From contig CAVUQH010000024.1 in the NCBI GenBank assembly GCA_963743525.1, positions 129,763-193,762 of the forward strand: a stretch of 64,000 nucleotides of DNA. The letters run 5' to 3'. Numbering within the stretch: position 1 is the first letter of the stretch; every line of letters starts with the position of its first letter. Shown in pieces: positions 28,267-64,000 of the stretch. This stretch comes from an uncultured delta proteobacterium (lineage in GTDB: Bacteria > Myxococcota_A > Polyangia > Haliangiales > Haliangiaceae). Under the pieces are notes generated by a model that was not told where the DNA came from, did not search any database, and was given only the letters and a program-made list of their open reading frames with translations. Both the position numbers and the translations under genes were made by a program.

Positions 28267-28986
28267 ATGATACGGACGATGATCGTCGCCGTGGCACTCG
28301 CGTCGGTGGCGTGTACCCCGCCGCCGAGCGACCTCACCGCGAATCAGAAGGGGCTGACCATTGCGGCTCACGACGACACCGAGCTGTCGGGCAGCTACCG
28401 CGCGTTTGGTGTCGACCTGGAGTTCGCGTTCATCGAGAGCGAGCCGAACGTGGTCGACGTAACCTACGACTTCGGCGACCAGGTGATCGCGTTCCGCCTC
28501 GACTACGCCCGGGGCCAGGGCGACTTCGATCCCAGCGCGGCGACGTTGCGCGAGGATCAGAAGTCGGCGATCGAAGGCTTCTACCAGGCGCTTCAGCCGC
28601 AGCTGGCAGCGACCTCCGACGACCGCCCGCTGGTCGAGGATGTCGCGGTACGCATCACCAGCCTGATGCACATCGTTCCCGCGGGCGAGCAGCTCGAGGC
28701 CGGCACCTTCGTCGCGCAGCGCGGCTGGGTGCACATCTCGTGCAGCTGCAAGACCCAGTACATCGGCAGCGGCTACTACCGCAAGGCGGGCAAGGGCAGC
28801 TGGTGCACCGGCGGCAGCGGCCGCGGATGCAAGGGACGCTGCGGCGTCGGCTGTGGCTACGACAACCTCTGTTGGGGCTACGCCACCGGCACCTACACCC
28901 GCGACTGCGCCAAGCACGACTACGGGCTGGGCAGCTGGTGGAGCGCGAGCGACGACTATTCGTTCTCCAGCTACAACTGCTGCTAG
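28267..28986 (+). CDS. Lipoprotein with Cys-rich C-terminal module
   Basis: RBS gaggggaggg. MIRTMIVAVALASVAC lipobox. C-terminal ISCSCKTQYIGSGYYRKAGKGSWCTGGSGRGCKGRCGVGCGYDNLCWGY...YNCC. Confidence 0.65.
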   Translation: MIRTMIVAVALASVACTPPPSDLTANQKGLTIAAHDDTELSGSYRAFGVDLEFAFIESEPNVVDVTYDFGDQVIAFRLDYARGQGDFDPSAATLREDQKSAIEGFYQALQPQLAATSDDRPLVEDVAVRITSLMHIVPAGEQLEAGTFVAQRGWVHISCSCKTQYIGSGYYRKAGKGSWCTGGSGRGCKGRCGVGCGYDNLCWGYATGTYTRDCAKHDYGLGSWWSASDDYSFSSYNCC

Positions 28987-28990
28987 CGTC

Positions 28991-30367
28991 ATGACCGCGC
29001 TCGTAGCCATGACGCCGGCGTGTCAGCGCCAACCGCAGTCGGTGCGCGCTGCCATCGTCGGCGGCGCGCCGTCGACCGCGGACGTGGCCGTGGTCGCGCT
29101 GGTAGCGCCACCGCTGGCGTGCGGCGACGACGAGCAGCTACTGTGCAGCGGCGCCCTGGTCGGGCCGCGCGCCGTGCTGACCGCCGCCCATTGTGTCAAC
29201 CTGGCGCCTCCCGGCACGTTGCGGCTGTTCGCCGGCAGCGAGGTGGGCGGCACCGGCATGCACCTCGAGGTCAACCGCGCGTGGACGCACCCCGACTACG
29301 ACGGCGTCGATCACGACCTGGCGATCCTGTCGCTGCGCGCGCCCGTCGACGACATCGCGCCGCTGGCCATCGACGACCGCACCATCGACGACTCGTTCGT
29401 CGGCGAGTCGGTGCGCGTGGCCGGCTTCGGTGCCGATGACGATGGCGTCGTGGGCGCCCGCCGGCAGGGCACGTCACGAGTGTCGGAGGTCGGGCCGCTG
29501 ACCTTCGTGTCCACGCCGGCGCCGGGCAACAGCTGCGAGGGCGACAGCGGCGGACCGGTCGTGCGCGCCAGCGACAGCGGTGATGCCATCGCCGGCGTCA
29601 CCGTCTCGGGCGATCCCGGGTGCGCGCTGACCGGCGTCAATGCGCGGGTCGACGTCGAGCTCGCCTGGATCGATGACACGCTCGCGGCGATCGACAGCCG
29701 CCCCGCGCCCGGCAACGAACCGCCGAGCGCCGACGACTGCACCGACGGTGGCTGCAGCGCCGGCGGCCGCGGGGCGTGGTGGCTGCTCCTCGTGCTGGTG
29801 GCGCTGCTGGTCGGCTGCGGCCGCACCGGCGCCGCCGAGCGAGCGTCTGGCCCCTGCCCCGCCGGCACCACGCTGCGCGGCGCGCCGCCCCCGGACGGCC
29901 GCGCCCAGTGGTGCGAGCGCCGCGGCGCCAAGCACGGCCCGTGGACCGAGTGGTACGCCGACGGTCGGGTGAAGTCGCGCGGCGCCTTCGCCGACGGACA
30001 GATGACCGGCCGCTGGGTGCACTACCAGCCCGACGGCGCCGTCGCCGACGAAGGCAACTACGTCGCCGGCGTCAAAGACGGTCCGTGGAAGAGCTTCGAA
30101 GACGGCCGCGTGGTTCGCGCGACCACCTACTCCAGGCGCGGCGCCGAGGCGCGCTTCACCGCCTATCGCGACGACGGCTCGCGCTGGGCCGAAGGGGTGT
30201 TCCTCGACCAGAAGGAGAACGGCCCCTACCGCGAGTGGCACGCCAACGGTCAGCTCGCGGCCGAAGGCAGTTACCGCGACGGCGAACGCGTCGGCAGCTG
30301 GCACTACTGGGAGCCGGACGGCACGCCGACCGACGTCGAACAGGGCGCCTTCGCCGGCCAGGACTGA
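28991..30367 (+). CDS. Trypsin-like (S1) serine protease fused through a hydrophobic segment to a MORN-repeat domain
   Basis: IVGG...TAAHC...DLAIL...GDSGGP catalytic triad context. Then CTDGGCSAGGRGAWWLLLVLVALLVGC (MYXO-CTERM-like or TM). Then MORN-type repeats GPWTEWYADGRVKSRGAFADGQMTGRWVHYQPDG. Confidence 0.8.
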   Translation: MTALVAMTPACQRQPQSVRAAIVGGAPSTADVAVVALVAPPLACGDDEQLLCSGALVGPRAVLTAAHCVNLAPPGTLRLFAGSEVGGTGMHLEVNRAWTHPDYDGVDHDLAILSLRAPVDDIAPLAIDDRTIDDSFVGESVRVAGFGADDDGVVGARRQGTSRVSEVGPLTFVSTPAPGNSCEGDSGGPVVRASDSGDAIAGVTVSGDPGCALTGVNARVDVELAWIDDTLAAIDSRPAPGNEPPSADDCTDGGCSAGGRGAWWLLLVLVALLVGCGRTGAAERASGPCPAGTTLRGAPPPDGRAQWCERRGAKHGPWTEWYADGRVKSRGAFADGQMTGRWVHYQPDGAVADEGNYVAGVKDGPWKSFEDGRVVRATTYSRRGAEARFTAYRDDGSRWAEGVFLDQKENGPYREWHANGQLAAEGSYRDGERVGSWHYWEPDGTPTDVEQGAFAGQD

Positions 30368-30815: not shown

Positions 30816-30985
30816 GTAGGATATTGTAGGTACAAACCGCTGGGGGCGGCAAGAAAACCGCCGGTGCTGCTCCGCGACGGCACAGGCTGCTCCGGCGCGA
30901 ACCACGCCCGCCACGCGGGTTCGCCCACTTGCCCGCGGCACGGACGTTGCTCTTCTCCGCGATGAACAGCCGGAGGAGACGCCGC

Positions 30986-33016
30986 ATGAGTGAACGCGAA
31001 GTCCGTGAGCGCGACATCCTGGTCGCCCCCAACGAGTACGCCTACGTCCAGGACCTGACCAAGGGCGACATCGTCCTCTACGTCGGGCCGACCAAGATCA
31101 GCCTGTCCAACACCGAGCGCATGGTCATCCTGCGCGACGGCCGGTTCGTGCCGGTGCGTGGGGACGAGGCCGGTCTCGGCGTGCACCCGTTCGTCGAGGC
31201 CAGCTCGTCGCAATACATCATCCTCGACAACCCGGCCGCCGACGCCGAGGCCAGGCCGGTCAAGGGCGCCTGCTCGGCAGTGCCGCTGAGCATGGGCCGC
31301 ACGATCGTCGTGCCCGGTCCCGCCCGCTTTCCCCTGTGGCCGGGGCAGCGCGCCCAGGTGATCGACGGCCACCAGCTGCGCGACGACGAATACCTGGTGG
31401 TGCGCGTCTACGACGACGACGGCTCGGGCGCACCGATCGGCACCGAGCAGATCATCCGCGGCAGCGACGTGTCGTTCTACGTGCCGCCCAGCGGACGCGA
31501 AGTGGTGCCCAACGCCGGCGGCCGCTACGAACGCCAGGCCTGGCGACTCGACGGCCGCGGCGGTCTGCACCTGCGCGTGACTGCGCCGTTCGAGGCCGGT
31601 GACGGTGACCAGGTGCCGGCGGGCAGCTACCAGCCTGGGCAGGATCTGTTCCTGCGCGGGCGCGAGGGCTACTTCTTCCCCACCGATTCGCTCGAGGTGC
31701 TGGGCGCCGTCGAGCCGATCGCGCTGGCCGAGCGCGAGGCGATCTACGTGCGCGACCACGCCACCGGACGGATCGCCACCGTCGCCGGGCCGCGCACCTT
31801 CCTCCTCGATCCGATCCGCGAAGAGCTGGTGCGCCGCCGCCTGGATCCGGCGACCCGCGTCCATTATCACGTCGCCGCGGCCGGCGACGATCGCGCACCC
31901 ACCATCTATGTGCCGCCCAGCACCGCGGTCATGGTCACCGCGCGCGACCGCCGCGAGGTGGTAATCGGCCCGACGACCCGCGTGCTCGCCTACGACGAAG
32001 AGCTGGAGACCCTGACGCTGTCGACCGGCCGGCCCAAGTCCGACGACCATCTGTTGCCCACCTGCTTCTTGCGCATCCAGGGCAACAAGGTGTCGGACCG
32101 GGTCACGGTCAAGACCGCCGACCACGTGGAGCTGGAGGTCAACCTGTCGTATCGAGTGTCGTTCGCCGGCGACAGCGAGCGCTGGTTCAACGTCAAGGAC
32201 TACGTCGGCCTGCTGTGCGACCACCTGGCGTCGATCATCCGCGCCGCCGCACGGGCGACGCCGATCGAGTCGTTCCACGCCCGGTCAACCGACGTTCTGC
32301 GCACGGCGATCCTCGGACCGCGTGCCGACGGCGGCGAGCGCGAGGGACGCCACTTCGTCGAGAACGGCATGTGGGTCTACGACGTCGAGGTGCTCGACGT
32401 GCGCATCCTCGACGACGACGTCAACGAGCTGTTGTGCGACGCCCAGCGCGTGGCCATCGTCTCCGACATCACCCGCAAGCAGGCCGAGCTGCGCCTCGGC
32501 GACCAGGCGCTGGAGCAGCGGGTCGAGCGCGAGATCCTCCAGGCCCGCGCCGAGACCGACGCCGCCCGCGCCGCGCTCGAGGCCCGCACCCGCGAGCTGG
32601 CACTGGCCGAGGCCGGCACCCGCGTCGAGGTCGATCGCCTCGAGCGAGTCGGCCGCGCCGCCGCCGAAGCCGACGCCCTCGAGCGCGTCGAGCGAACCCG
32701 CCTGGCTCTGGCCGCAGACGAGAGCGAGGTCGAGCGCCGCCGCCTGGAAGCCCGCGCCGCCGCCTTCCGCTCCGAGATGGAAGCGATCGCCCCCGAGCTG
32801 ATCGCCACGCTCAAGAGCGTCGCCGGGCAGAAGCTCGCCGGTGAGCTGTCGCGCAACCTCTCTCCGCTGGCGATCCTCGGCGGCGACAGCGTCGCCGACG
32901 TCGCCTCACGCCTGCTCGCCCACCTGCCGCTCGGCCCTGGCCGGACCAATGGCAGCGTCGACCTCCGCGCCCTGCTCGGCCTGGGAGACGACCCCGACGA
33001 GCCCGCGGACGCATAG
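30986..33016 (+). CDS. Major vault protein (MVP) homolog: N-terminal MVP repeats, shoulder domain and coiled-coil cap-helix region
   Basis: Strong RBS ccggaggagacgccgcATG. ILVAPNEYAYVQDLTKGDIVLYVGPTKISLSNTERMV resembles MVP repeat 1 ([37 protein letters not shown]). LSTGRPKSDDHLL...TADHVELEVNLSYRVSF...DYVGLLCDHLASIIRAAARATPIESFHARSTDVLRTAILG aligns to the MVP shoulder region (SAGRPK...TADHARLQLQLAYNWHF...[40 protein letters not shown]). Long Glu/Arg/Ala coiled coil as in the cap-helix domain. Confidence 0.85.
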   Translation: MSEREVRERDILVAPNEYAYVQDLTKGDIVLYVGPTKISLSNTERMVILRDGRFVPVRGDEAGLGVHPFVEASSSQYIILDNPAADAEARPVKGACSAVPLSMGRTIVVPGPARFPLWPGQRAQVIDGHQLRDDEYLVVRVYDDDGSGAPIGTEQIIRGSDVSFYVPPSGREVVPNAGGRYERQAWRLDGRGGLHLRVTAPFEAGDGDQVPAGSYQPGQDLFLRGREGYFFPTDSLEVLGAVEPIALAEREAIYVRDHATGRIATVAGPRTFLLDPIREELVRRRLDPATRVHYHVAAAGDDRAPTIYVPPSTAVMVTARDRREVVIGPTTRVLAYDEELETLTLSTGRPKSDDHLLPTCFLRIQGNKVSDRVTVKTADHVELEVNLSYRVSFAGDSERWFNVKDYVGLLCDHLASIIRAAARATPIESFHARSTDVLRTAILGPRADGGEREGRHFVENGMWVYDVEVLDVRILDDDVNELLCDAQRVAIVSDITRKQAELRLGDQALEQRVEREILQARAETDAARAALEARTRELALAEAGTRVEVDRLERVGRAAAEADALERVERTRLALAADESEVERRRLEARAAAFRSEMEAIAPELIATLKSVAGQKLAGELSRNLSPLAILGGDSVADVASRLLAHLPLGPGRTNGSVDLRALLGLGDDPDEPADA

Positions 33017-33069: not shown

Positions 33070-34653
33070 GTGCGTACCCGGCCAGTCCTCGCGCTCTCCG
33101 CCCTGCTCTTGGCCTCCGGCTGTGGCAACGACCCGCCGCCGACCATCGACTTCGCCGCGCCGGGCTCGATCTCGGCGCCGTCGGGCAAGGGCAGCTTTCG
33201 CTTCGGCGCGTCGACGGCGGCGACGCAGATCGAAGACATGGACGAGCACACCGACTGGTGGGCGTGGACCGCGCCGGAGGCGATGGGCGGGCTGGGCAGG
33301 GACACCTTCGTCGGCGACGCGACGATGGGCTACAGCAAGGCGATCGACGACATCGACCTGCTCGAGGCGATGCACCTCGACTCGTATCGCTTCAGCATCG
33401 AGTGGGCGCGCATCGAGCCGCAGCCGGGGGTGATCGACGAGGCCGCCCTGGCCCACTACGACGCGCTGATCGACGCGCTGGTCGAGCGCGGCATCAAGCC
33501 GATGGTCACCATCCACCACTTCTCCAACCCGACCTGGGTCGCCGATCCGCGGGTCACCGGCTGCCCCGACGGCGTCACCGCCGACTACCTGTGCGGTTGG
33601 AACTATCCCGACGGCGCCGACGCCATCGTCGCGGCGATGGCGGCCCACGCCCAGCTGCTGGCCGAGCGCTACGGCGACCGGGTCGACGAGTGGGCCACGG
33701 TCAACGAGCCGGTCAACTACCTCATCGCCAGCTACGGCGTCGGCTTCATGCCGCCGGGGCGCAGCCTGCTGATCAGCGACTTCCCCCGCTTCATGGACGT
33801 CTTCCGCGGCTACGTGCGCGGGCACGTGGCCATGTACGACGCGCTCAAGCAGTACGACACCATCGACGCCGACGGCGACGGCGTGGCCGCCAGCGTCGGC
33901 CTCACCCTGAGCGTGGCCGAGTGGGTGCCGGCGCGCGACAACCTGCCCAGCGACAACCCGGACGACATCGCCGCCGTCAACCGGGTGCGCAACGCCTATC
34001 ACTACGAGTTCGTCGAAGCGCTGCGACAGGGCGCCTTCGACGCCAACCTCGACGGCACCTACGAGGAGAGCCACCCGGAATGGGCGGGCAAGCTCGACTG
34101 GCTGGGCGTGCAGTACTACAGCCGCATCAGCGTGTCGGCCGACCGCGCCATCATCCCCGGCGTCAACGCGATGGTCTGTTTCGGCGGCTTCGACCTCGGC
34201 TCGTGCCTGGCGCCCGAGGATCCCACCCACTGGGTTCCGACCATGAGCTACGAGTATTACGAGCCGGGGCTGTACAACGTGCTGACCGACTTCTCCCAGC
34301 GCTGGCCCGACCTGCCGCTGATGGTCACCGAGTCGGGCATCGCCACCGATGTCGGCAAGCGGCGCGCCGAGCACGTGGTCCGCTCGCTGGAGCAGATCCA
34401 GAAGGCGATCGACGCCGGCGTCAACGTGCGCGGCTACTACCACTGGAGCCTGACCGACAACTTCGAGTGGAACCAGGGCTTCGCGCCTCACTTCGGCCTG
34501 TACCGGGTCGACTACGACACCTACGAGCGGACGGCGACCGAGGGCGCCACAGTGCTGGGCGATATCGCCGGCGCGCGCCAGCTGACCGGCGACCAGCGCA
34601 AGGAGTACGGCGGCCTCGGACCGATGACTCCGGAAGACGGCGCCGGCCAGTAG
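33070..34653 (+). CDS. GH1 family beta-glucosidase, lipoprotein
   Basis: GTG start with gaagg RBS. Lipobox LLLASGC. GH1 motifs YRFSIEWARIEP, TVNEP (acid/base), VTESGIA (nucleophile region), YYHWSLTDNFEW. Confidence 0.9.
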   Translation: MRTRPVLALSALLLASGCGNDPPPTIDFAAPGSISAPSGKGSFRFGASTAATQIEDMDEHTDWWAWTAPEAMGGLGRDTFVGDATMGYSKAIDDIDLLEAMHLDSYRFSIEWARIEPQPGVIDEAALAHYDALIDALVERGIKPMVTIHHFSNPTWVADPRVTGCPDGVTADYLCGWNYPDGADAIVAAMAAHAQLLAERYGDRVDEWATVNEPVNYLIASYGVGFMPPGRSLLISDFPRFMDVFRGYVRGHVAMYDALKQYDTIDADGDGVAASVGLTLSVAEWVPARDNLPSDNPDDIAAVNRVRNAYHYEFVEALRQGAFDANLDGTYEESHPEWAGKLDWLGVQYYSRISVSADRAIIPGVNAMVCFGGFDLGSCLAPEDPTHWVPTMSYEYYEPGLYNVLTDFSQRWPDLPLMVTESGIATDVGKRRAEHVVRSLEQIQKAIDAGVNVRGYYHWSLTDNFEWNQGFAPHFGLYRVDYDTYERTATEGATVLGDIAGARQLTGDQRKEYGGLGPMTPEDGAGQ

Positions 34654-46143: not shown

Positions 46144-47424
<1,281 letters not shown>

Positions 47425-47433
47425 TGCGGGCTC

Positions 47434-49401
<1,968 letters not shown>

Positions 49402-49540
49402 GGGGCGCACATTATGCTGCCGGTCGGGAGCAGTAAAGTGCGCATCGACGCGGGCGGCCCGGCGGTCCGGATCCGGTCCCGCGACCCGAATGATTCCCGT
49501 GTCTTGTCGATTGAATCGGCGGCCGGGTATGGTGCATGCG

Positions 49541-50979
49541 TGGCGAGGTGGCAGCGGCTCTCTGCGTTGGACGCGTCCTTTCTCGGGATCGAGACCGAAC
49601 GTGCGCACATGCACGTCGGCGCGCTGGTGGTGCTCGAGGCCGGCCCGCTGGCCACCGCCGACGGCGGCATCGACTTCCCGACGTTGAATCGCTACTTCGA
49701 GGCGGTCATCGCCAAGCTGCCGCGCTACCGGCAGAAGCTGGCGTGGGTGCCCGGCCTGCATCACCCGGTGTGGGTCAACGACGAAGATTTCAACATCAAC
49801 TATCACGTGCGCCACACCGCGCTGCCCGGCCCCCGCGACGAGCGCGTGCTCAAGCGGCTGGCCGGCCGCATCTTCTCCCAGCGCCTCGACCGCACCCGCC
49901 CGCTGTGGGAGGTGTGGATCGTCGAAGGCCTGACCGGCGGACGCTTCGCGCTGATCTCCAAGATCCACCACGCGATGATCGACGGCGTCGCCGGCGTCAA
50001 CCTGATGGCTGCGCTCCTGCGCGGCACGCCCGATCGAACCCTGCCGCCGGCGCCCGCGCCGTGGGAGCCGGCACCACCGCCGTCGTCGGCCGAGCTGCTG
50101 GCCGCCGAGCTCGAGCACCGCGCGCGCGGCTCGCGCACCGTGTTCGATCGCCTGCGCGCCGCCGCCCGCGATCCACTCGGCTGGTGGGAAGAGACCAAGG
50201 ACACGGCGATGGGACTGGCCGACTCGCTGGCCGCGGGCATCGTCCCGGCCTCGCCCACGCCGATCAACCCGCGCAAGATCGGACCGCACCGCCGCTTCGA
50301 CGTCTGGAGCGTCAACCTCGAGCGGGTCAAGGCGGTGAAGACCGCGCTGGGCGCCAAGCTCAACGACGTAGTGCTGGCCACCGCCACCGGCGCCCTCGCC
50401 CGCTTCCTCGAGCGGCGCGGCGCCGACGTGCGCAACCTGTCCGACTTCCGCGCGCTGGTACCGGTGAGCATTCGCAAGGAGGGCGAGCACGCCAGCGGCG
50501 GCAACCGCGTGGCGATGATGCTCGCCCACCTGCCGATCGAGGTCGCCGACCCGCAGCTCCGCCTCGAGCGCGTGTGCGAGGTGATGACCCACCTCAAGAC
50601 CCAGTCGCGCCAGGTCGAGAGCACCGCGCTGATCGAAGAGCTCAGCGATCTGACGGCGACCTCTCTGGTCAAGCAGGTGCTGCGCACCGCCGGCCGCCAG
50701 CGCGCCTACAACGTGGTCATCACCAACGTGCCCGGCCCGCCGTTCCCGCTCTATCTGCTCGGCGCGCGCATCCAGTCGGTCTACCCGCTGGTGCCGCTGC
50801 TCGAGAACCAGGCCCTGGGCATCGCGCTGTTCAGCTATGCCGGCAGCCTGTGCTGGGGCATCGTCGGCGACTGGCAGTCGATGCCCGACCTCCACGACTT
50901 CGTCGATGACCTCGAGGCGTCGTTCGCCGCGCTCGAGGCGGCCGCCGGTCGCGACCGCGCTGCCGAGAGCATCGCGTGA
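49541..50979 (+). CDS. Wax ester synthase / acyl-CoA:diacylglycerol acyltransferase (WS/DGAT) family protein
   Basis: LSALDASFLGIETERAHMHVGAL N-terminus. HHAMIDGVAG catalytic motif (HHxxxDG). About 480 aa. Confidence 0.85.
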
Positions 50980-52448
50980 GACGACCGCGTCGCCCCGACC
51001 TGTGGCTGGGCCTGGGGCTGGTGGCGCTGTTCGCGAGCGCTCTACCTGGCGACCATGTGTCGCGCCGTCTACTGGTACGACAGCGCCGAGTACGTCGCCG
51101 CGGCGGTGACCATCGGCATCCCCCACCCGCCCGGCTACCCGCTGTACACGCTGATCGCGCACACCTTTACCTGGCTGCCGGTCAACCCCGCGATCGCGGT
51201 CAACGCGGTGAGCGCGGTGTTCGGCGCCGTCGCCGTCGGGCTGTCGTTCGGCGCCGGGCGCGCGCTCGGCCTGCAGCGGGCGCCCGCGCTGTTCGCCGCC
51301 GCGCTGCTCGGCGCCGGCACCGTGTTCTGGGGCAACGCGGTGGTCGCCGAGGTCTACACCCCGGGGCTGGCGGTCTTCTTCACCGTCGTCTGGCTGCTGG
51401 CCCGCGGCGTGCGCGAGGACCGGCCGCTCCTGCTGGTCGGTGCCAGCGCGCTGGCCGGCGCCGGCATGGGCGTGCACATGTCGATCGCCACCACCGGGCT
51501 GGGGCTCGGCCTCCTGGTCTTCGCCACCGGCCTGCCGATCGAAGCGCCCGCGCGATCTGGCGCGACTGTTCTCGCGCGAGCAGCTTCGCCGTCGCCTGCT
51601 GGTGGCCGGCGGCTGCCTGCTGGCCGCCGCCGCCGCCGCCGCGCTGGTGTTCGCCTGGCTGCCGCTGCGCGCGTCGATGCACCCGAAGCTCAACTTCGGC
51701 GATCCGGAGACGTGGCAGCGCTTCGTCTGGCACGTCACCGGCGGCAACTACAAGCACTGGTTCGACGTGCCGACCACCGGTGGCCGCGTCGCCCGCATCG
51801 CCACCACGCTGGGCGAGCAGCTCGGCTGGGTCGGCCTGGCGCTGGCCGCCGCGGGTGTCGGCGCTGGGCCTGCGCCGCCGCCCGCTGATCACCGCCGCGC
51901 TGATCGCGATGGCCGCCGGCAACCTGTACTTCTTCTTCGACTACAAGGTGCACGACGTCGAGGTCTTCTTCCTGCCGACCACCGCGACGCTGTGCCTGCT
52001 GGCCGGCTTCGGCGTGCAGGAGATCGCCGGCCTGCTTCGTCCCGGCCTGTCGCGCGGCATCGCCGTGGCGCTGGGCGTGCTGCCGCTGGCGCTGGCGGTC
52101 GCCAGCTTTCGCCAGAACGATCTGTCCGACTACACCGCCGCGCGCGACTACGGCGAGGCGCTGACCCGCGAGCTGCCGCGCGGCGCCGTCATCGCCAACT
52201 TCACCACGCCGCCCGAGTGGCAGCGCGACGCGGTCTTCCACGACTACTTTCAGATCGTCCGCGGCGACCGCCCCGACGTCACGGTGCTGACCCGGCCGCC
52301 CGCGCAGCGGCTGGGCGAGCTGGTCGCCAGCGGCCGACCGGTCTACCTCTACTACCCGGTCGATCTAATGATGAGCGGCAGCTTCGCCCTGGCGCCCGAA
52401 GGGCACCTGGTCCGCGTCCGCCTCAGCGGCGGTCCGGGCGCACGATGA
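50976..52448 (+). pseudogene. DUF2723 / TMEM260-like polytopic membrane protein (putative glycosyltransferase), interrupted by at least three 1-bp frameshifts
   Basis: GTGA overlap with WS/DGAT stop. Frame A gives MRRPRRPDLWLGLGLVALFASAL. Frame B gives LYLATMCRAVYWYDSAEYVAAAVTIGIPHPPGYPLYTLIAH... (DUF2723 signature) to about 51535. Frame C gives RDLARLFSREQLRRRLLVAGG...WHVTGGNYKHWFDVPTTGG...LALAAAGV. Frame A again gives PLITAALIAMAAGNLYFFFDYKVHDVEVFFLPT...YLYYPVDLMMSG to 52448. Confidence 0.7.
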
Positions 52449-57986: not shown

Positions 57987-58823
57987 ATGCGGCTGCTGGC
58001 GGTGACGATGTGTGTGTTGGTAGGCGCGCCAGCCACCGCGCATGCGGACCGCCACAAACAGGCGCGCGCCGCTCGCACCAATCTGAAAGCCGGCATCAAG
58101 CTGTTCGAAAAGGGCGAGCACGACCTCGCCATCGAGAAGCTCAAGATCGCGCTGGCGCTCGGTGGCGACGCCTCTGCCAACTACTACCTCGGCCGCGCCT
58201 ACGAAGCCAAAGACGAGCTGGCGCAGGCCGTCTACTACCTGCAGACCTTCCTCGACGCCAAATCGCGCAAACACAGGCACCTGCGCAACGATGCCGAAAA
58301 GCGCGTCGCCGCACTGAAGAAGAAGCTCGACGACGCCGCCGATACCACGACCGAGCCAGCGCCCGAGCCGCCGCCCGAACCACCGCCGCCGGCCCCCGCG
58401 CCCAAGCCAGACGTCGCGCCCGCGCCTGCGCCCGTGGTCACCCCCGAGCCAGAGCCCAGCCCCGGCCCCCGGCAGGATCAGCCGCACGGAATGACCGGCA
58501 TGCGCATGGCCGGCCTCGCCACTCTCGGCGCCGGCGTGCTGCTCGCCGGCACCGGCGGCTACTTCGCCTACGTCGCCCACGATCGCTCGAACCAGCTGTC
58601 GGATCTGTTCGCCGGCGGCGCCACCTGGGACAACAGCTACAACGACCTCTACGACCAGGGGAAAGCCGCCCAGCGCAACGCGCGCATCCTCATCGGCATC
58701 GGCGGCGCGGCCGCGATCACCGGCGCCGTCCTGGTCGTTCTCGGCCATCGCGACTCCCCGCCTCCGGTCACCGTCTCCGCCCTCCCCGGCGGCGCAAGCG
58801 TGAACGTATGGTGCGACTTCTAG
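57987..58823 (+). CDS. Secreted TPR-like protein with Pro-rich linker and C-terminal TM helices
   Basis: Signal MRLLAVTMCVLVGAPATAHA. TPR-like helices (AIEKLKIALALGGDASANYYLGRAYEAKDELAQAVYYLQTF). PEPAPEPPPEPPPPAPAPKP linker. Two hydrophobic segments. Confidence 0.65.
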   Translation: MRLLAVTMCVLVGAPATAHADRHKQARAARTNLKAGIKLFEKGEHDLAIEKLKIALALGGDASANYYLGRAYEAKDELAQAVYYLQTFLDAKSRKHRHLRNDAEKRVAALKKKLDDAADTTTEPAPEPPPEPPPPAPAPKPDVAPAPAPVVTPEPEPSPGPRQDQPHGMTGMRMAGLATLGAGVLLAGTGGYFAYVAHDRSNQLSDLFAGGATWDNSYNDLYDQGKAAQRNARILIGIGGAAAITGAVLVVLGHRDSPPPVTVSALPGGASVNVWCDF

Positions 58824-59314
58824 CCAGCTTCTCCGTCGTCCTCGCCACCGCGTGGACGGTCTCCTGCTTCTCGCCCAAGCAGAGCGACGGCACCGTGGCA
58901 TGTGGCGCCGGCGGCGCCTGCCCGCCCGGCTTCACCTGCGCCGGCAACAACCTGTGCTACCGCCAGCCGCCCGGCGTCGACGCCGCCGCCAGCATCGACG
59001 CGCGCCCCGGCCAGGACACCGGCACCATCGATGCCACCAGTGGTGACGACGCCACCATCTTCGACGCCACCTCCGGCATCGACGCGCTCGTCGGCGAGTG
59101 CAACGACGGCATCGACAACGACTGCGACGGCGAGGTCGACTATCCCAACGATCCCGGCTGCACCAGCGCCCTCGATCCCAGCGAGCACGGCACCAAGCAG
59201 TGCGACGACGGCATCGACAACGACGGCGACAACGGCATCGACTACCACCTGGGGAATTGCCCGCTCGGCCCCACCGACCCGCAGTGCAGCGGGCCGAACG
59301 ATCCCCAGGAATAG
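58808..59314 (+). CDS. Cys-rich lipoprotein with Asp-rich calcium-binding-like repeats
   Basis: MVRLLASFSVVLATAWTVSC lipobox. GECNDGIDNDCDGEVDYPNDPGC and KQCDDGIDNDGDNGIDYHLGNC repeats. Confidence 0.6.
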   Translation: MVRLLASFSVVLATAWTVSCFSPKQSDGTVACGAGGACPPGFTCAGNNLCYRQPPGVDAAASIDARPGQDTGTIDATSGDDATIFDATSGIDALVGECNDGIDNDCDGEVDYPNDPGCTSALDPSEHGTKQCDDGIDNDGDNGIDYHLGNCPLGPTDPQCSGPNDPQE

Positions 59315-59339
59315 CAGCTGGATCCCTCAGCGGGCGGAT

Positions 59340-59520
59340 CGCACCGGGCCGCTGCCGCCCAATCGCGTCGTCTTCGTCACCCGCATCGGCGGCGAACAAG
59401 ATTTCCTCAAAGTCCTCGACTTCACTCGTTCGGCGCCATCATGTACTTCCTCTTGACCGGACAGCCGCCCTTCAACGTCGCCTGCGACTGCGACTGGCAG
59501 CCGAGCACGACGACGAAGTG
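59340..59520 (+). pseudogene. Remnant of a Ser/Thr protein kinase gene (internally deleted, frame-broken copy related to the kinase at 62383)
   Basis: Translations NRVVFVTRIGGEQDFLKVLDF and SFGAIMYFLLTGQPPF match kinase subdomains VIb-VII and IX of the downstream paralog (ANLFLTTAGGEDDFLKVLDFG; SLGAVMYFLLTGQPPF). About 45 codons between them are missing, and the two halves are in different frames. Confidence 0.6.
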
Positions 59521-59532
59521 AACCAGCATGTC

Positions 59533-61113
59533 CTATTCCTCGTAGGTCAGCGTGTCGCCGGGTGGCAGTGTGACCGGTATCGTCGGCGACATGCTGCTCA
59601 GCTTGCTGAAGTCGACCTCGCCCAGCGCCTCAGCCACTTCCTCGCAACTCGGGAACCGATGAGCCGGGTCCTTTTCCAGGCAGCGAACGATGACTACTTC
59701 CAGGTCCGTGGGCAGGGGCGCACCGATACGAATGGAGGGTGAGACCAGGGGCTTCGCCCCGTGCGCGCGCAACACCGCGAAGGTCGACTCTGATGGAAAT
59801 GGCGCATCCCCGGTGACGGCGAAGTACATAGTGGCGCCAAATGAATAGACGTCGGATCGAGCGTCCGCCTCCTTGCCCTGAATCACCTCTGGTGCCATGT
59901 AGGACGGAGTCCCTCCGGTCCAGCCCTCGACCGTCAGCGTGGTGGCGGAGCCCGCGGCCATCTTCACGAGGCCAAAGTCGACGAGCTTGACCTGATGGTT
60001 CTTGCCGCCGATCTGGGAAACCATGATATTGCCCGGCTTGACGTCGCGGTGGACCAGCGACATCGAGTGCGCTTCCGCCAACGCGGCAGCGATCTGGCTG
60101 AACAGGCGCTGGGCGAGCGCCGGTGACAGCGGGCCCGATTCGGCCACGAGCTCGCGGAGGGTCTTGCCGCGGATGTACTCCATCGCGTAGTAGGGGAACC
60201 CATCCTCGGTCCAGCCAAAGTCGAATACCCGGATCGTGTTCGGGTGTGACAGACGCGACGTTGCTCGCGCTTCGCGCTCGAACCGCGCCACGCCGGGACC
60301 ATCGAGACGGTTGTGCATGAGGAACTTGAGCGCGACGTCGGTCTTCAAGGAGCGGTCGTAGGCGCGCCAGACCTCTCCCATCCCGCCAGCGCCCAACTTC
60401 TCGGACAAGCGGTACCGACCGATCATCTTGGCCTCGAAGAGCTGGCGCCGGAGCCTCCACGCCGCATCGCTGGCGAGCACGACCAGACCAAGACATCCGT
60501 AGATCCCGGCCATGTCAACGAGGAACAATGTGCGAGTGTCGTGATCCGCGAACTGTGCCGCCACCCGCGGCATGAAGAAGGACGCCACCAACATCGTCAG
60601 CGGATAGAGCGTAGCGGGAATCCCGGAAAGAATGAGCCCCCTCTTCCAGTGGGCCGGAAGTGCCGCGGCCCGAACGGTCAGCACCTGGATCACGCCGACG
60701 AAGTAAGGGCTACGAACTCCACCTACCCCGAGAGCCATCACGCTGATCAGCAAGCCGGCCGAACCGAACGCCACCACGTTGACCGTTACGGCGACCGCTC
60801 GCGCTGGCCAGCGGCGCAGAGTCGCAATCGAGGCAACCAGCACGGCTGCTCCGGCCGCGCGACAAATCAGAAAGAACGAGAGCGGTGCTGCGTCGAGCTG
60901 CGACACGACGATGGCGTCCAGCCCAACGAACGCGATCCAACAACCCAAGCCAATCCGCAACACCTGTCGCAAGCGCAGCAGCTCCCAGGCGAAGTCACTC
61001 TGCTTCGCGGAGCGAATCCGCAAATCGCCGCTGTTGAGCTTGCGCGCGGTCCCGTCCGCTCCGCCGGAGGCCCCATCTCCCACCGTCCCAATCGGCGATT
61101 CCACCGCATCCAT
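59533..61113 (-). CDS. Membrane-anchored Hanks-type Ser/Thr protein kinase (N-terminal polytopic domain, C-terminal kinase)
   Basis: Six or more TM helices, then GRYRLSEKLGAGGMGEVWRA, ALKFL, HRDVKPGNIMV, DFGLVK, GTPSYMAPE. ATG at 61113. Confidence 0.9.
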   Translation of the reverse strand: MDAVESPIGTVGDGASGGADGTARKLNSGDLRIRSAKQSDFAWELLRLRQVLRIGLGCWIAFVGLDAIVVSQLDAAPLSFFLICRAAGAAVLVASIATLRRWPARAVAVTVNVVAFGSAGLLISVMALGVGGVRSPYFVGVIQVLTVRAAALPAHWKRGLILSGIPATLYPLTMLVASFFMPRVAAQFADHDTRTLFLVDMAGIYGCLGLVVLASDAAWRLRRQLFEAKMIGRYRLSEKLGAGGMGEVWRAYDRSLKTDVALKFLMHNRLDGPGVARFEREARATSRLSHPNTIRVFDFGWTEDGFPYYAMEYIRGKTLRELVAESGPLSPALAQRLFSQIAAALAEAHSMSLVHRDVKPGNIMVSQIGGKNHQVKLVDFGLVKMAAGSATTLTVEGWTGGTPSYMAPEVIQGKEADARSDVYSFGATMYFAVTGDAPFPSESTFAVLRAHGAKPLVSPSIRIGAPLPTDLEVVIVRCLEKDPAHRFPSCEEVAEALGEVDFSKLSSMSPTIPVTLPPGDTLTYEE

Positions 61114-61239
61114 CCTGTCAAGGATCACACAGCGGCAGCAAAGAGACAGGGTTAGATTTCTGGCCGATTTTCGCAAACCCGCGCGGCCAGCACTCTGCCG
61201 CCCGTGTGTTACACTGAGCGCCTCCTGCTTCCTCGCACG

Positions 61240-62331
61240 ATGGGCATGCCTGGACGTTCATCTGTTCTCATCGTTGATGACGAACGAGAACATTGCGACC
61301 TGCTGGCGCTGATCCTGCGCCGTCGCTACGACGTGCACACGTCCACGTCGCCGACGAAGGCGCTCGAGATGGCGCGCAGCACCAGCTTTGCGGTGGTACT
61401 CGCTGACTACCGCATGCCTGAGATGACCGGAACCGACTTTCTCTCCGCACTCGCCGAGATTCAGCCGGACTGCATGCGTCTGCTTGTCACCGCGTACGGT
61501 GACACCGGCGTGCTGGGCAAGGCGATCAACCAGGCCCGAGTCTACCGCTTCATTCCCAAGCCAGTGGACCCGGAGCAGCTCCAGCTCGACATCCAGCGAG
61601 CCATCGAACACAGACAGGCGCAACTGGACCTGGGCCGCGCCCAGGGGATGGCCTTGGTCGGCAGTCTCGTCGGCTCGGTCATCCACGACCTGCGAAACTA
61701 CATGGTGGTCCTGCGGACCACGCCCGATCTCCTCGAGGAGGCCGATCCCGAAGGCGTTCGCGAGCTGGCGCACAGGCTCCGGCGAGTCGAGCAAAACATC
61801 GGTGACCTGGTGGAGGAGTTGCTGGCGATCGCACGCGGGCGCCCGCCGCGCTACGAGCTGACACCGTGCAACTTCGAGGAGATCGTCAGATCAGCGATTT
61901 CCCTGGCGCAGCACGATCCACAGCTCGCCCAGCGCGCCATCGCCGTGCAGATCGATGAAGGTCTTCCCGAGATTCCGCTCTCCCGAAGCCGCTGTGACCG
62001 AATGATCGGCAACCTCCTGCGCAATGCTCGGGAGGCGACGGCCAAGGACGGACACATCGCGGTACGCCTCCACAAGGGCCCGAACGAAACTCTCGAGCTC
62101 GAAATCGAAGACGACGGTCACGGGATTGCACCTGAAATCGTCGATCGAATCTTCGACCCGATGTTCTCGACCAAGGCTGATTCCGGCGGCTCTGGTTTCG
62201 GCCTTGCGATCTGCAAGACGGTGGTCGAAGGCCACGGCGGCACGATTTCCTGCGAGAGCCAGCCCGGGCGAACGGTCTTCTCTCTTCGTCTCCCCATGAG
62301 GCCGTCCGCCAGCCCCATCATCAGTGATTGA
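61240..62331 (+). CDS. Response-regulator receiver fused to histidine kinase (REC-HisKA-HATPase_c)
   Basis: SVLIVDDEREHCDL...VLADYRMPEMTG...K (REC). H-box VIHDLRNYM. N-box NLLRNAREA. G-boxes DDGHGI and GGSGFGLAI. Confidence 0.85.
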   Translation: MGMPGRSSVLIVDDEREHCDLLALILRRRYDVHTSTSPTKALEMARSTSFAVVLADYRMPEMTGTDFLSALAEIQPDCMRLLVTAYGDTGVLGKAINQARVYRFIPKPVDPEQLQLDIQRAIEHRQAQLDLGRAQGMALVGSLVGSVIHDLRNYMVVLRTTPDLLEEADPEGVRELAHRLRRVEQNIGDLVEELLAIARGRPPRYELTPCNFEEIVRSAISLAQHDPQLAQRAIAVQIDEGLPEIPLSRSRCDRMIGNLLRNAREATAKDGHIAVRLHKGPNETLELEIEDDGHGIAPEIVDRIFDPMFSTKADSGGSGFGLAICKTVVEGHGGTISCESQPGRTVFSLRLPMRPSASPIISD

Positions 62332-62382
62332 GCCCGGTCGTGAACCGAAGTACGGTGGAGCGCTTCCACCGCCGGCAAGACC

Positions 62383-64000
62383 GTGGCCGACCAGAACGAC
62401 AATCCTGACATCTCGGCGCTCACGTCCACGCTGACGGCGCCGTCCGTCGAGTCCGCTCCGTTCACGCCGCCCCGGCCGAAGCCGAGCCCCGCGTTGGTCC
62501 AAGCCGCGGCGGAGCCCGCCGCCCAAGCGACAGCGAGGGATCGCGCGGGCGAAGCTTCTAACGCTCCCGAGCGCGTCGAGGGCCTGTCGATCGGTCCGAT
62601 CGAGTCCAGCGCAGACGAGGACCACCGGACGAACCTCGCCCGATTCCGCTTCGCGATGGGAGGCGGGCTAGTCGTCTGCATACTGTTCGGTGCGGTCGAC
62701 TGGCTGGTGGTCGCTCACATTCATCCCGCCGCTTTCATACCGTTCCTCACGTTGCGACTCGGGATCATCGCTGCCCCAGCTATCTCGCTGATCGCGACGC
62801 GACGGCTGCCAAACATGTCGCGACGCACGCTCAAGGCGTTCGATCTCGTCACGTTCACATCCGTCGCCGGAATGATCTCGCTGATGTGCGTCTGGTTCCG
62901 CGGCATCGTTAGCCCGTACTACGCCGGAGTCATCGTGGTAGTCGTTTGTCGAGGTGCGGCAATGCCCACCAACTGGCGCTCCGGTGTGCTGTACTTCGGG
63001 CTGCCGGCAGCCACCTTCCCCGGCATCATGCTGACCCTCGCACCGTTCGATCAGCAAATCGCGCGACAGCTGCAGAACCCTCCGCAGTTGGCGCTGTTCG
63101 CCCTGAACACAATCTTCATCGCCAGCTCGCTGTTGCTGGTCATCCTCGGAAGCCACGCCGTCTGGGCGCTGCGCCGACAACTCTATGCGACCCGAAGTCT
63201 GGGACGATATCGGCTACAGAGCCGCCTCGGCGCAGGCGGCATGGGCGAGGTTTGGCGGGCGCATCACCCCGGGATCAAGCGGGATGTCGCAATCAAGATT
63301 CTCCGTCCGGACCGCTCCAACCAGGAGATGGGGATCGCGCGTTTCGAGCGTGAAGTCGCCGCGACGGTCCGGCTAACCCATCCCCACACCGTACGCGTGT
63401 TCGATCACGGAGTGACCCACGACGGCCTTTGGTACTACGCCATGGAGTTGCTCGACGGGCGAGATCTTAGAACGCTGGTGAAGCAGGAAGGACCGCTCCC
63501 GCCACAGCGCGTCGCCTATCTGGCTGGCCAAGCAGCACGTGCGCTTGCCGAAGCGCACGCTATCGGGATTGTTCACCGCGACATCAAGCCCGCGAATCTG
63601 TTTCTCACGACAGCCGGTGGTGAAGACGATTTCTTGAAAGTCCTCGATTTCGGAATCGCCAAATTCTCGGAAGGGGCCAACGACCCAACGTTGACCAGAA
63701 GCGGCTGGCTTGGCGGAACCCCCGACTACATGTCTCCGGAGCTGGTCCTTGGGCATCCAGTGGACGCGCGAACGGACATCTACTCGCTTGGCGCCGTCAT
63801 GTACTTTCTGCTCACCGGACAACCTCCATTCGTCGGCAAGAGCTCTGCCGAAGTCATGAACGCCCAGGTCAACAAGCCCCTGCGCTACCCATCGCATCTG
63901 CTCGGCAGTCCCGTCCCAACCGAACTCGAGGAGATCGTTGTTCGGTGCCTGGCGAAGGACCGCGAGGAGCGATTCCCCGATGCCAAGTCGCTTGCAGTGG
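62383..64000 (+). CDS. Membrane-anchored Hanks-type Ser/Thr protein kinase, paralog of the kinase at 59533-61113; 3' end beyond window
   Basis: GTG at 62383 after in-frame TGA at 62341. Low-complexity N-region, polytopic membrane domain (GIVSPYYAGVIVVVVCRGAAMPTNWRSGVLYFGLPAATFP parallels GVRSPYFVGVIQVLTVRAAALPAHWKRGLILSGIPATLYP). Then LGRYRLQSRLGAGGMGEVWRA, AIKIL, HRDIKPANLFL, DFGIAK, GTPDYMSPE. Not in the ORF track because it lacks a stop inside the window. Confidence 0.85.
   Translation, partial: MADQNDNPDISALTSTLTAPSVESAPFTPPRPKPSPALVQAAAEPAAQATARDRAGEASNAPERVEGLSIGPIESSADEDHRTNLARFRFAMGGGLVVCILFGAVDWLVVAHIHPAAFIPFLTLRLGIIAAPAISLIATRRLPNMSRRTLKAFDLVTFTSVAGMISLMCVWFRGIVSPYYAGVIVVVVCRGAAMPTNWRSGVLYFGLPAATFPGIMLTLAPFDQQIARQLQNPPQLALFALNTIFIASSLLLVILGSHAVWALRRQLYATRSLGRYRLQSRLGAGGMGEVWRAHHPGIKRDVAIKILRPDRSNQEMGIARFEREVAATVRLTHPHTVRVFDHGVTHDGLWYYAMELLDGRDLRTLVKQEGPLPPQRVAYLAGQAARALAEAHAIGIVHRDIKPANLFLTTAGGEDDFLKVLDFGIAKFSEGANDPTLTRSGWLGGTPDYMSPELVLGHPVDARTDIYSLGAVMYFLLTGQPPFVGKSSAEVMNAQVNKPLRYPSHLLGSPVPTELEEIVVRCLAKDREERFPDAKSLAV

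Follow-up and report, generated by a model that had tools for sequence, protein, structure and literature searches.

The vault, discovered in 1986, still has no known function almost 40 years on, and where it came from is disputed. Expression of the eukaryotic major vault protein (MVP) by itself is enough to yield vault shells, even in E. coli (PMC9778704); the N-terminus of the protein makes the waist contact between the two halves of eukaryotic vaults (PMC12280208). Homologs outside eukaryotes have been reported. The list of Daly et al. (2013) comprises ten bacterial proteins with predicted MVP-like folding and docking, among them Corallococcus coralloides H8MNI3 and Plesiocystis pacifica A6FXM1 and A6FXE2, all three myxobacterial (PMC3762200); Sokolskyi (2019) reported homologs from Myxococcales, Cytophagales and Oscillatoriales, with Enhygromyxa salina as one source (bioRxiv 10.1101/872010); and phage MVPs were reported by Santos et al. 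(2023). A 2026 paper described five-repeat Asgard homologs, argued for an Asgard archaeal link, and placed prokaryotic homologs in 'only a few Bacteria' (PMC12962969). We have analysed a stretch of 64,000 nucleotides (the window; contig CAVUQH010000024.1, positions 129,763 to 193,762) from an uncultured delta proteobacterium, which carries a gene for an MVP homolog.

By sequence comparison, the product of this gene is almost certainly a genuine bacterial MVP, of the short type that is typical of Myxococcota. A sequence-only reading of the window had described it as a bacterial MVP homolog with repeat, shoulder and cap-helix regions and had proposed a search with the Pfam Vault and MVP_shoulder hidden Markov models; the description is borne out by Pfam, phmmer, profile comparison and the structural model. 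MVP_shoulder (PF11978) matches amino acids (aa) 367-476 over 116 of its 118 profile positions (105.9 bits, cut-off 25, E 1.7e-30) and is also found in 28/28 aligned homologs. Vault_3 likewise exceeds its curated cut-off, at aa 322-357 (33.6 bits, cut-off 28.8, E 4.5e-8); Vault_4 stays below threshold at aa 245-287 and NCBIfam has no model for the protein. A phmmer search of all PDB sequences gave significant E-values for MVP chains only, with human MVP at E 4e-31 (query 145-602/674 on MVP 291-783/859) and rat chains aligned through residue 859. A profile built from the 28 homologs matched human and rat MVP at E 2e-55, from repeat R6 through the cap helix, and the Foldseek match of the structural model has E 4.6e-28. 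With hhalign, query residues 125-653 align to human MVP 270-855 at 99.9% probability and 29% identity; the human sequence used here was checked at five anchors against the HMMER printout and the residue numbers of PMC12280208.

Similarity therefore extends beyond the SPFH-like shoulder, since repeats and cap helix are homologous too, and the motifs quoted in the sequence-only reading (S-x-GRPK, TADH, DYVG..C..LAS) are all present. Repeat homology to the eukaryotic protein is strongest for the last four repeats, R6-R9, which that reading did not list; it had stressed the first MVP repeat. There the pattern can be seen and the statistics are weak: an alternative co-linear alignment places query 11-260 on human 8-234 (P ~4e-4, probability 34%), setting query 11-133 on human R1-R2 with the common motifs VGP, ER, Y..+.NP and FPL(W/Y)PG. 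The domain order is that of human and rat MVP (PDB 4V60, 9BW5), namely beta repeats, SPFH-like shoulder, cap helix and cap-like C-terminal region, and the G-R-P-K loop ahead of the shoulder and the TADH and DYVG motifs are common to both. To call the protein a 'near-complete' MVP was nevertheless an overstatement. It has about six repeats where eukaryotic MVP has nine, and its cap helix is about 31 residues shorter. Further differences are the replacement of the human waist residues and of most residues of the nucleotide pocket, and the absence of vault RNA from the window and of TEP1 and PARP4 domains from its ORFs scanned at 13-58 kb.

The structure was predicted with AlphaFold2 (AF2). A first model, from 28 close homologs, reached a predicted local distance difference test (pLDDT) score of 67, was poor in the N-terminal repeats and was replaced by one built on an alignment of 66 short- and long-form bacterial homologs (pLDDT 80.1, predicted template modelling score 0.56), in which most of the repeat region scores 80-97. 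This model has some 32 beta strands in six groups over aa 9-365, an alpha/beta shoulder at aa 366-476, an uninterrupted helix from 477 to 598 and, after a low-confidence stretch, a short helix at 636-645. MVP-type beta repeats are thus present N-terminal to the shoulder, with repeat-start motifs near aa 17, 76, 135, 193, 252 and 314. The model and the alignment to the human repeats suggest a count of about six, possibly 7; the count rests on these two because both objective counts were uninformative. Comparison of sub-alignments of the putative repeats by hhalign gave one weak signal, between repeat 1 and the fifth unit (E 0.001), and autocorrelation of hydrophobicity over aa 9-365 gave no significant period of ~59 residues (408/500 block shuffles were as good).

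Conservation was measured over the 120 best matches (645-762 aa; 54-100% identical, or 54-95% when the window's own entry, P0001, is left aside). Their named sources are Haliangium, Kofleriaceae, Polyangiales, Labilithrix, Archangium and other metagenome-assembled genomes (MAGs) of Myxococcota, with a few Planctomycetota. Repeat 1 is the best conserved part of the protein, with a mean top-residue frequency of 0.90 over aa 9-52 and 0.98-0.99 over aa 21-40. Ahead of the shoulder, the G-x-P-K loop at aa 348-351 is invariant. In human MVP a pocket between adjacent shoulders binds NAD+, ADP and ADP-ribose and is lined by R504, K506, R507, P508, H509, R511, L517, D521, F522 and W545 (PMC12280208). 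Mapped by sequence alignment, which did not cover R437, P565 and K573, the listed lining retains as invariant only K506 (K351, 120/120 homologs); R504 is kept in most (R349, 83/120), and the neighbouring P505, which is not among the listed residues, is invariant as P350. The other positions hold S/T, D, D/E, L, Q/R, N, K and V. Since most pocket residues are replaced, a nucleotide pocket of the human type would not be expected, and nucleotide binding as in the human vault shoulder was rejected on residue conservation.

The long helix aligns with human cap helix 647-802, and A602-P603 faces G803-P804 at the end of the human helix. The alignment requires three gaps in the query, 33 residues in total, so the bacterial cap helix comes to ~125 residues against 156 (~80%). 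The segment aa 477-630 is exactly 154 residues long in 117/120 homologs. Among the structured parts, conservation is lowest in mid-helix (top-residue frequency 0.54); it rises again where the helix ends and in the C-terminal motif (0.76-0.77 up to aa 650), and falls to 0.26 in the last 26 residues. P603, P627, L628, A629, I630, G632, G633 and S635 are invariant across the short form and the long form described below. Alignments reach human residues 855-859, but similarity to the cap ring is low and model confidence there is below 55. The protein has no hydrophobic segment (maximum 19-residue Kyte-Doolittle mean 1.04, at aa 627-645) and no match to Pfam Band_7 (PF01145).

The sequence-only reading implied a novelty that does not hold, and asked how homologs are distributed in Myxococcota. 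Bacterial homologs, myxobacterial ones included, were already published in 2013 and 2019, and thousands are in databases, some of them labelled. Two N-terminal peptide patterns, scanned against genomes, picked out 62 related loci, all in MAGs, of which 54 are titled Myxococcota or 'delta proteobacterium'; the others come from Planctomycetota, Acidobacteriota, one 'Clostridia' MAG and one Methanosarcinales MAG. The wider family is large and spans bacterial phyla: an exhaustive HMMER search of cluster representatives (50% identity) returned 1,154 clusters at E <=1e-3, 525 of them at E <=1e-30, and most of the top matches are 820-950 aa long. One such long-form protein (P0133) has 6,495 relatives at E <=1e-10 (90% clustering; including P0274-P0392) from Eremiobacterota, Riflebacteria, Desulfobacterales, Anaerolineae, Bacteroidia and others, and several of these already bear the label 'major vault protein' (JGI) or 'SPFH domain-containing protein' (NCBI). 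The long form (~820-900 aa) is longer by ~150 residues, with insertions after query positions 149, 184 and 299, and is 35-40% identical to the window protein, with many repeat 1 residues and SPLAILGG-S invariant in both. Eukaryotic MVP is closer to the window protein (E 4e-31) than to the long form (E 7e-18).

Among described relatives, the window protein belongs by description with the published bacterial MVPs, with which it shares phylum and the assignment of an MVP-like fold; orthologs in Myxococcaceae and Archangium MAGs are 53-58% identical to it. It differs from them in coming from an uncultured relative of Haliangium and the Kofleriaceae. The Asgard MVPs, again compared by description, are likewise shortened prokaryotic forms with cap helix, shoulder and fewer repeats (five), but they come from another domain of life and half of them group with eukaryotic MVPs in the published tree (PMC12962969). 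The SPFH/Band 7 cages (HflK/C, QmcA, stomatin, flotillin, prohibitin, erlin) have the same shoulder fold with a long helix after it, and these helices bundle into a dome; the proteins are membrane-anchored and have no MVP repeats, whereas the window protein has no anchor and no Band_7 match.

Outside the main phylum, MVP homologs occur in MAGs labelled Methanosarcinales archaeon (37% identity; L061 8001-10283), Clostridia, Blastocatellia and Acidobacteriota (L017, L024, L050), where either true transfers or mistakes in binning could account for them. A full-length long-form homolog of 809 aa, with the repeat 1 motif, an STGKPK loop and the shoulder, is also encoded in three huge uncultured phage genomes (462-735 kb); the records, LR756501.1 (735,411 bp; L063 1507-3936), LR756503.1 and LR756500.1, are unannotated. 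A Harvfovirus sp. protein (A0A3G5A4K1 in BFVD, 802 aa, named 'prohibitin domain-containing protein') gave a Foldseek match at E 2.7e-13 over ~800 columns and, judged by this structural match, may be MVP-like rather than a plain SPFH protein.

We propose that the window protein is a soluble, cytoplasmic, self-sufficient shell protein. Many copies would stand side by side through their shoulders and cap helices to make a dome, and a pair of domes would probably meet at the highly conserved repeat 1, forming a hollow, vault-like particle smaller than the eukaryotic one. Assembly would proceed without TEP1, PARP4 or vault RNA, and no cargo gene lies adjacent. Family membership, domain architecture, purifying selection, the lack of a membrane anchor and the lack of conserved neighbours are established directly; oligomerisation, closed-cage geometry, repeat 1 as the interface between halves and any cargo are what we infer as most likely. 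The proposal is made because homology covers every region that governs assembly, because eukaryotic MVP self-assembles and because all solved proteins with an SPFH domain and a long helix form rings or cages. Stand-alone assembly fits as well, since no neighbour is conserved in the 62 loci and the eukaryotic protein likewise assembles by itself. Conserved ends and fixed lengths, the purifying selection on the gene (quantified below) and the lack of a hydrophobic segment fit a repetitive lattice without proving one. With three fewer repeats and a shorter helix the particle would be shorter than the eukaryotic vault, an expectation taken from domain count and not computed. We regard a vault-like shell protein as the best explanation and hold it with reasonable, far from complete, confidence; that the window protein forms a cage at all, which is argued by analogy, we consider only a little better than an even bet. 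The broader proposition, that closed six-repeat vaults are built without TEP1, PARP4 or vault RNA by uncultured Myxococcota and, by extension, in many bacterial phyla and some huge phages, is tentative and perhaps somewhat more doubtful than not.

Several observations weigh against the shell proposal. A full-text search of the literature found no experimental characterisation of a bacterial MVP and no evidence of its assembly, and the PDB matches include no solved bacterial MVP or assembly. Repeat 1 resembles eukaryotic R1 weakly, and in place of the human waist residues R9, N22, D39 and N40 the bacterial homologs have invariant L12, T25, N42 and T43, with E41-R42 retained as E44-R45. The human nucleotide pocket is mostly lost in the bacterial homologs, hydrophobic or coiled-coil periodicity of the helix is not significant (87/1000 shuffles reach the observed peak), and the C-terminal region is modelled with low confidence. 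Given three fewer repeats and a helix ~31 residues shorter, copy number and closure may also differ from those of the eukaryotic vault.

The main alternative to a closed two-halved vault is a half-vault: one dome of the SPFH type, capping part of the inner membrane or some other surface. HflK/C, flotillin, stomatin and prohibitin cages all work as membrane-capping domes. Such a role seems improbable for the window protein, given that it has no transmembrane or other hydrophobic anchor, that no gene of the NfeD or FtsH type lies near it, and that it carries ~360 residues of MVP repeats, which are not found in SPFH membrane scaffolds; the extreme conservation of repeat 1 is, moreover, easier to explain by a homotypic waist contact. 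A protein that forms no cage, and serves instead as an elongated soluble scaffold or as a small oligomer, which might for instance bind a ligand or partner through its repeats or shoulder, is less likely again. This reading would accommodate the departures from cage-forming eukaryotic MVP in the number of repeats and the length of the helix, and the published multimer model of a five-repeat Asgard homolog is a low-confidence decamer (interface predicted template modelling score 0.525; PMC12962969). Yet every characterised protein with a shoulder or SPFH domain plus a long helix among the PDB matches assembles into large rings or cages, a helix of fixed length and strong conservation across phyla suggest lattice constraints, and the human ligand pocket is not conserved.

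A different kind of explanation, that the gene is eukaryotic contamination, a recent eukaryote-to-bacterium transfer in decay or a chance open reading frame (ORF), is scarcely credible, even though long spurious ORFs are common in GC-rich DNA and several shadow ORFs overlap the gene. The window has a G+C content of ~70% throughout and genes were called from third-position GC content (GC3), which for this gene is 0.91, as in the surrounding bacterial genes. The gene sits between typical myxobacterial genes on a contig of 422 kb, has orthologs in 62 species-level genomes, mostly Myxococcota, and encodes a protein only ~29% identical to human MVP. Against the ortholog in a close relative (L001; 92% amino-acid identity) the ratio of nonsynonymous to synonymous substitution rates is 0.13, as expected of a real gene under purifying selection. 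These data together exclude both contamination and a spurious ORF. The antisense shadow ORFs within the gene (window 31078-31407, minus strand) recur in 47 loci because the sense gene is conserved; they are high-GC artefacts, not genes.

We return to the gene for the proposed shell protein and to its surroundings, whose features are collected in Table 1. The coordinates given in the sequence-only reading hold, its length of 677 aa includes the stop codon and the true product is one residue shorter, and the strong ribosome-binding site it noted is there as GGAGGAGA, which is also kept in L001. The start agrees with the family N-termini, MxERDVRERDILV; the protein begins with the charged sequence MSEREVRERD, and an alternative in-frame ATG six codons further upstream is GTG in L001. 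Exact look-up of the protein returned no record and tblastn against the window found no second copy.

Table 1 Positions (in the window) of the MVP-homolog gene, its protein regions and its immediate neighbours
Feature	Position	Strand	Remarks
MVP-homolog gene	30986..33016	+	ATG at 30986, stop 33014-33016; 676 aa plus stop
Shine-Dalgarno-like GGAGGAGA	30972..30979	+	six bases upstream of ATG; read from sequence
All-beta repeat region, ~six putative MVP-type repeats	31010..32080	+	aa 9-365
Repeat 1, most conserved part	31010..31165	+	aa 9 to ~60
SPFH-like shoulder domain	32081..32413	+	aa 366-476; preceded by G-x-P-K loop
Cap-helix equivalent, one long alpha helix	32414..32788	+	aa 477 to ~601
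C-terminal cap-ring-like region	32789..33013	+	aa 602-676; PELIATL, SPLAILGG-S, helix 636-645, variable tail from ~651
Trypsin-like serine protease with MORN repeats	28853..30367	+	upstream of MVP; terminator-like hairpin after it
PilZ-domain gene (cyclic di-GMP receptor type), 152 aa	30372..30830	-	divergent from MVP
Glycoside hydrolase family 1 (GH1) gene	33070..34653	+	53 bases downstream of MVP; lipoprotein signal (LLLASGC)

The neighbourhood was compared by BLAST of the window ORFs against the 62 related loci and by de novo clustering of all ORFs in those loci. In these species-representative genomes no neighbour family is conserved beyond close relatives; the largest clusters other than MVP are the antisense shadow ORFs, and Pfam assigns the neighbours at related loci to unrelated functions (CxxCxxCC protein, cytochrome c, hydrolases, GH31). 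The MVP gene behaves as a stand-alone gene. The absence of TEP1- or PARP4-like partners remarked on in the sequence-only reading was confirmed over the part scanned with Pfam: the 34 ORFs at 13-58 kb contain no TROVE, NACHT/WD40, PARP, VIT or vWA domain. Rfam found no vault RNA and no other family in the whole window, no NfeD- or FtsH-type partner gene lies near MVP, and PADLOC returned nothing for MVP or its immediate neighbours apart from weak matches of the upstream protease to the LmuA and Avs1b protease domains (E 1.8e-5 and 2.3e-3), which most likely reflect a general resemblance among proteases rather than a defence system. No lead to cargo or physiological role came from the neighbourhood or from the pocket.

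The PilZ assignment scores right at the Pfam cut-off (22.6 vs 22.5). The PilZ region is 91% identical in L001, and other clades carry a CxxCxxCC-domain gene beside MVP instead; this divergent gene has a promoter-like TTGCCG-18-TACAAT at 30852-30823. No terminator and no unusual structure were found in the spacer between MVP and GH1. A GH1 gene lies within 8 kb downstream of MVP in 6/48 loci with MVP recovered as an ORF, which exceeds expectation from its rarity and may reflect shared synteny; to judge from the lipoprotein signal, the product of the window GH1 gene is exported, which makes a partnership with a cytoplasmic protein unlikely. The other 24 ORFs scanned at 13-58 kb have ordinary myxobacterial functions, including Ser/Thr kinases, a sigma-54 activator, an adenylate cyclase-STAND protein, beta-oxidation enzymes and a hybrid histidine kinase. 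Elsewhere in the window, a 1,437-aa ORF (47434-51747, minus strand) matches 3-hydroxyacyl-CoA dehydrogenase and enoyl-CoA hydratase only at aa 785-1346 and has ~780 N-terminal residues without a Pfam match, as an unusual fusion or an over-extended ORF call would; a thiolase gene follows it at 46144-47424. Over 58000-64000 the G+C content falls from ~0.70-0.74 to 0.63-0.68 and ORF calls are ambiguous; this segment may be foreign or rich in non-coding DNA.

The window gene is one ordinary representative of an abundant family that had already been noticed, and is not a discovery in itself. Its product is a convenient candidate for a first experimental test of a bacterial vault. The bacterial family, with 1,154 clusters and more than 6,000 long-form proteins, extends far beyond the 'few bacteria' of the recent literature (PMC12962969), and the myxobacterial short form is nearer in sequence to eukaryotic MVP than the common long form. 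A compact bacterial MVP without known partners would offer a simple system in which to study what the shell does alone, and possibly an engineerable protein cage, prospects that are not peculiar to this window. If the proposal is true, closed bacterial vaults would be a widespread protein organelle that nobody has yet seen, and their minimal form could reveal the shell's own function and whether the eukaryotic vault is of bacterial origin.

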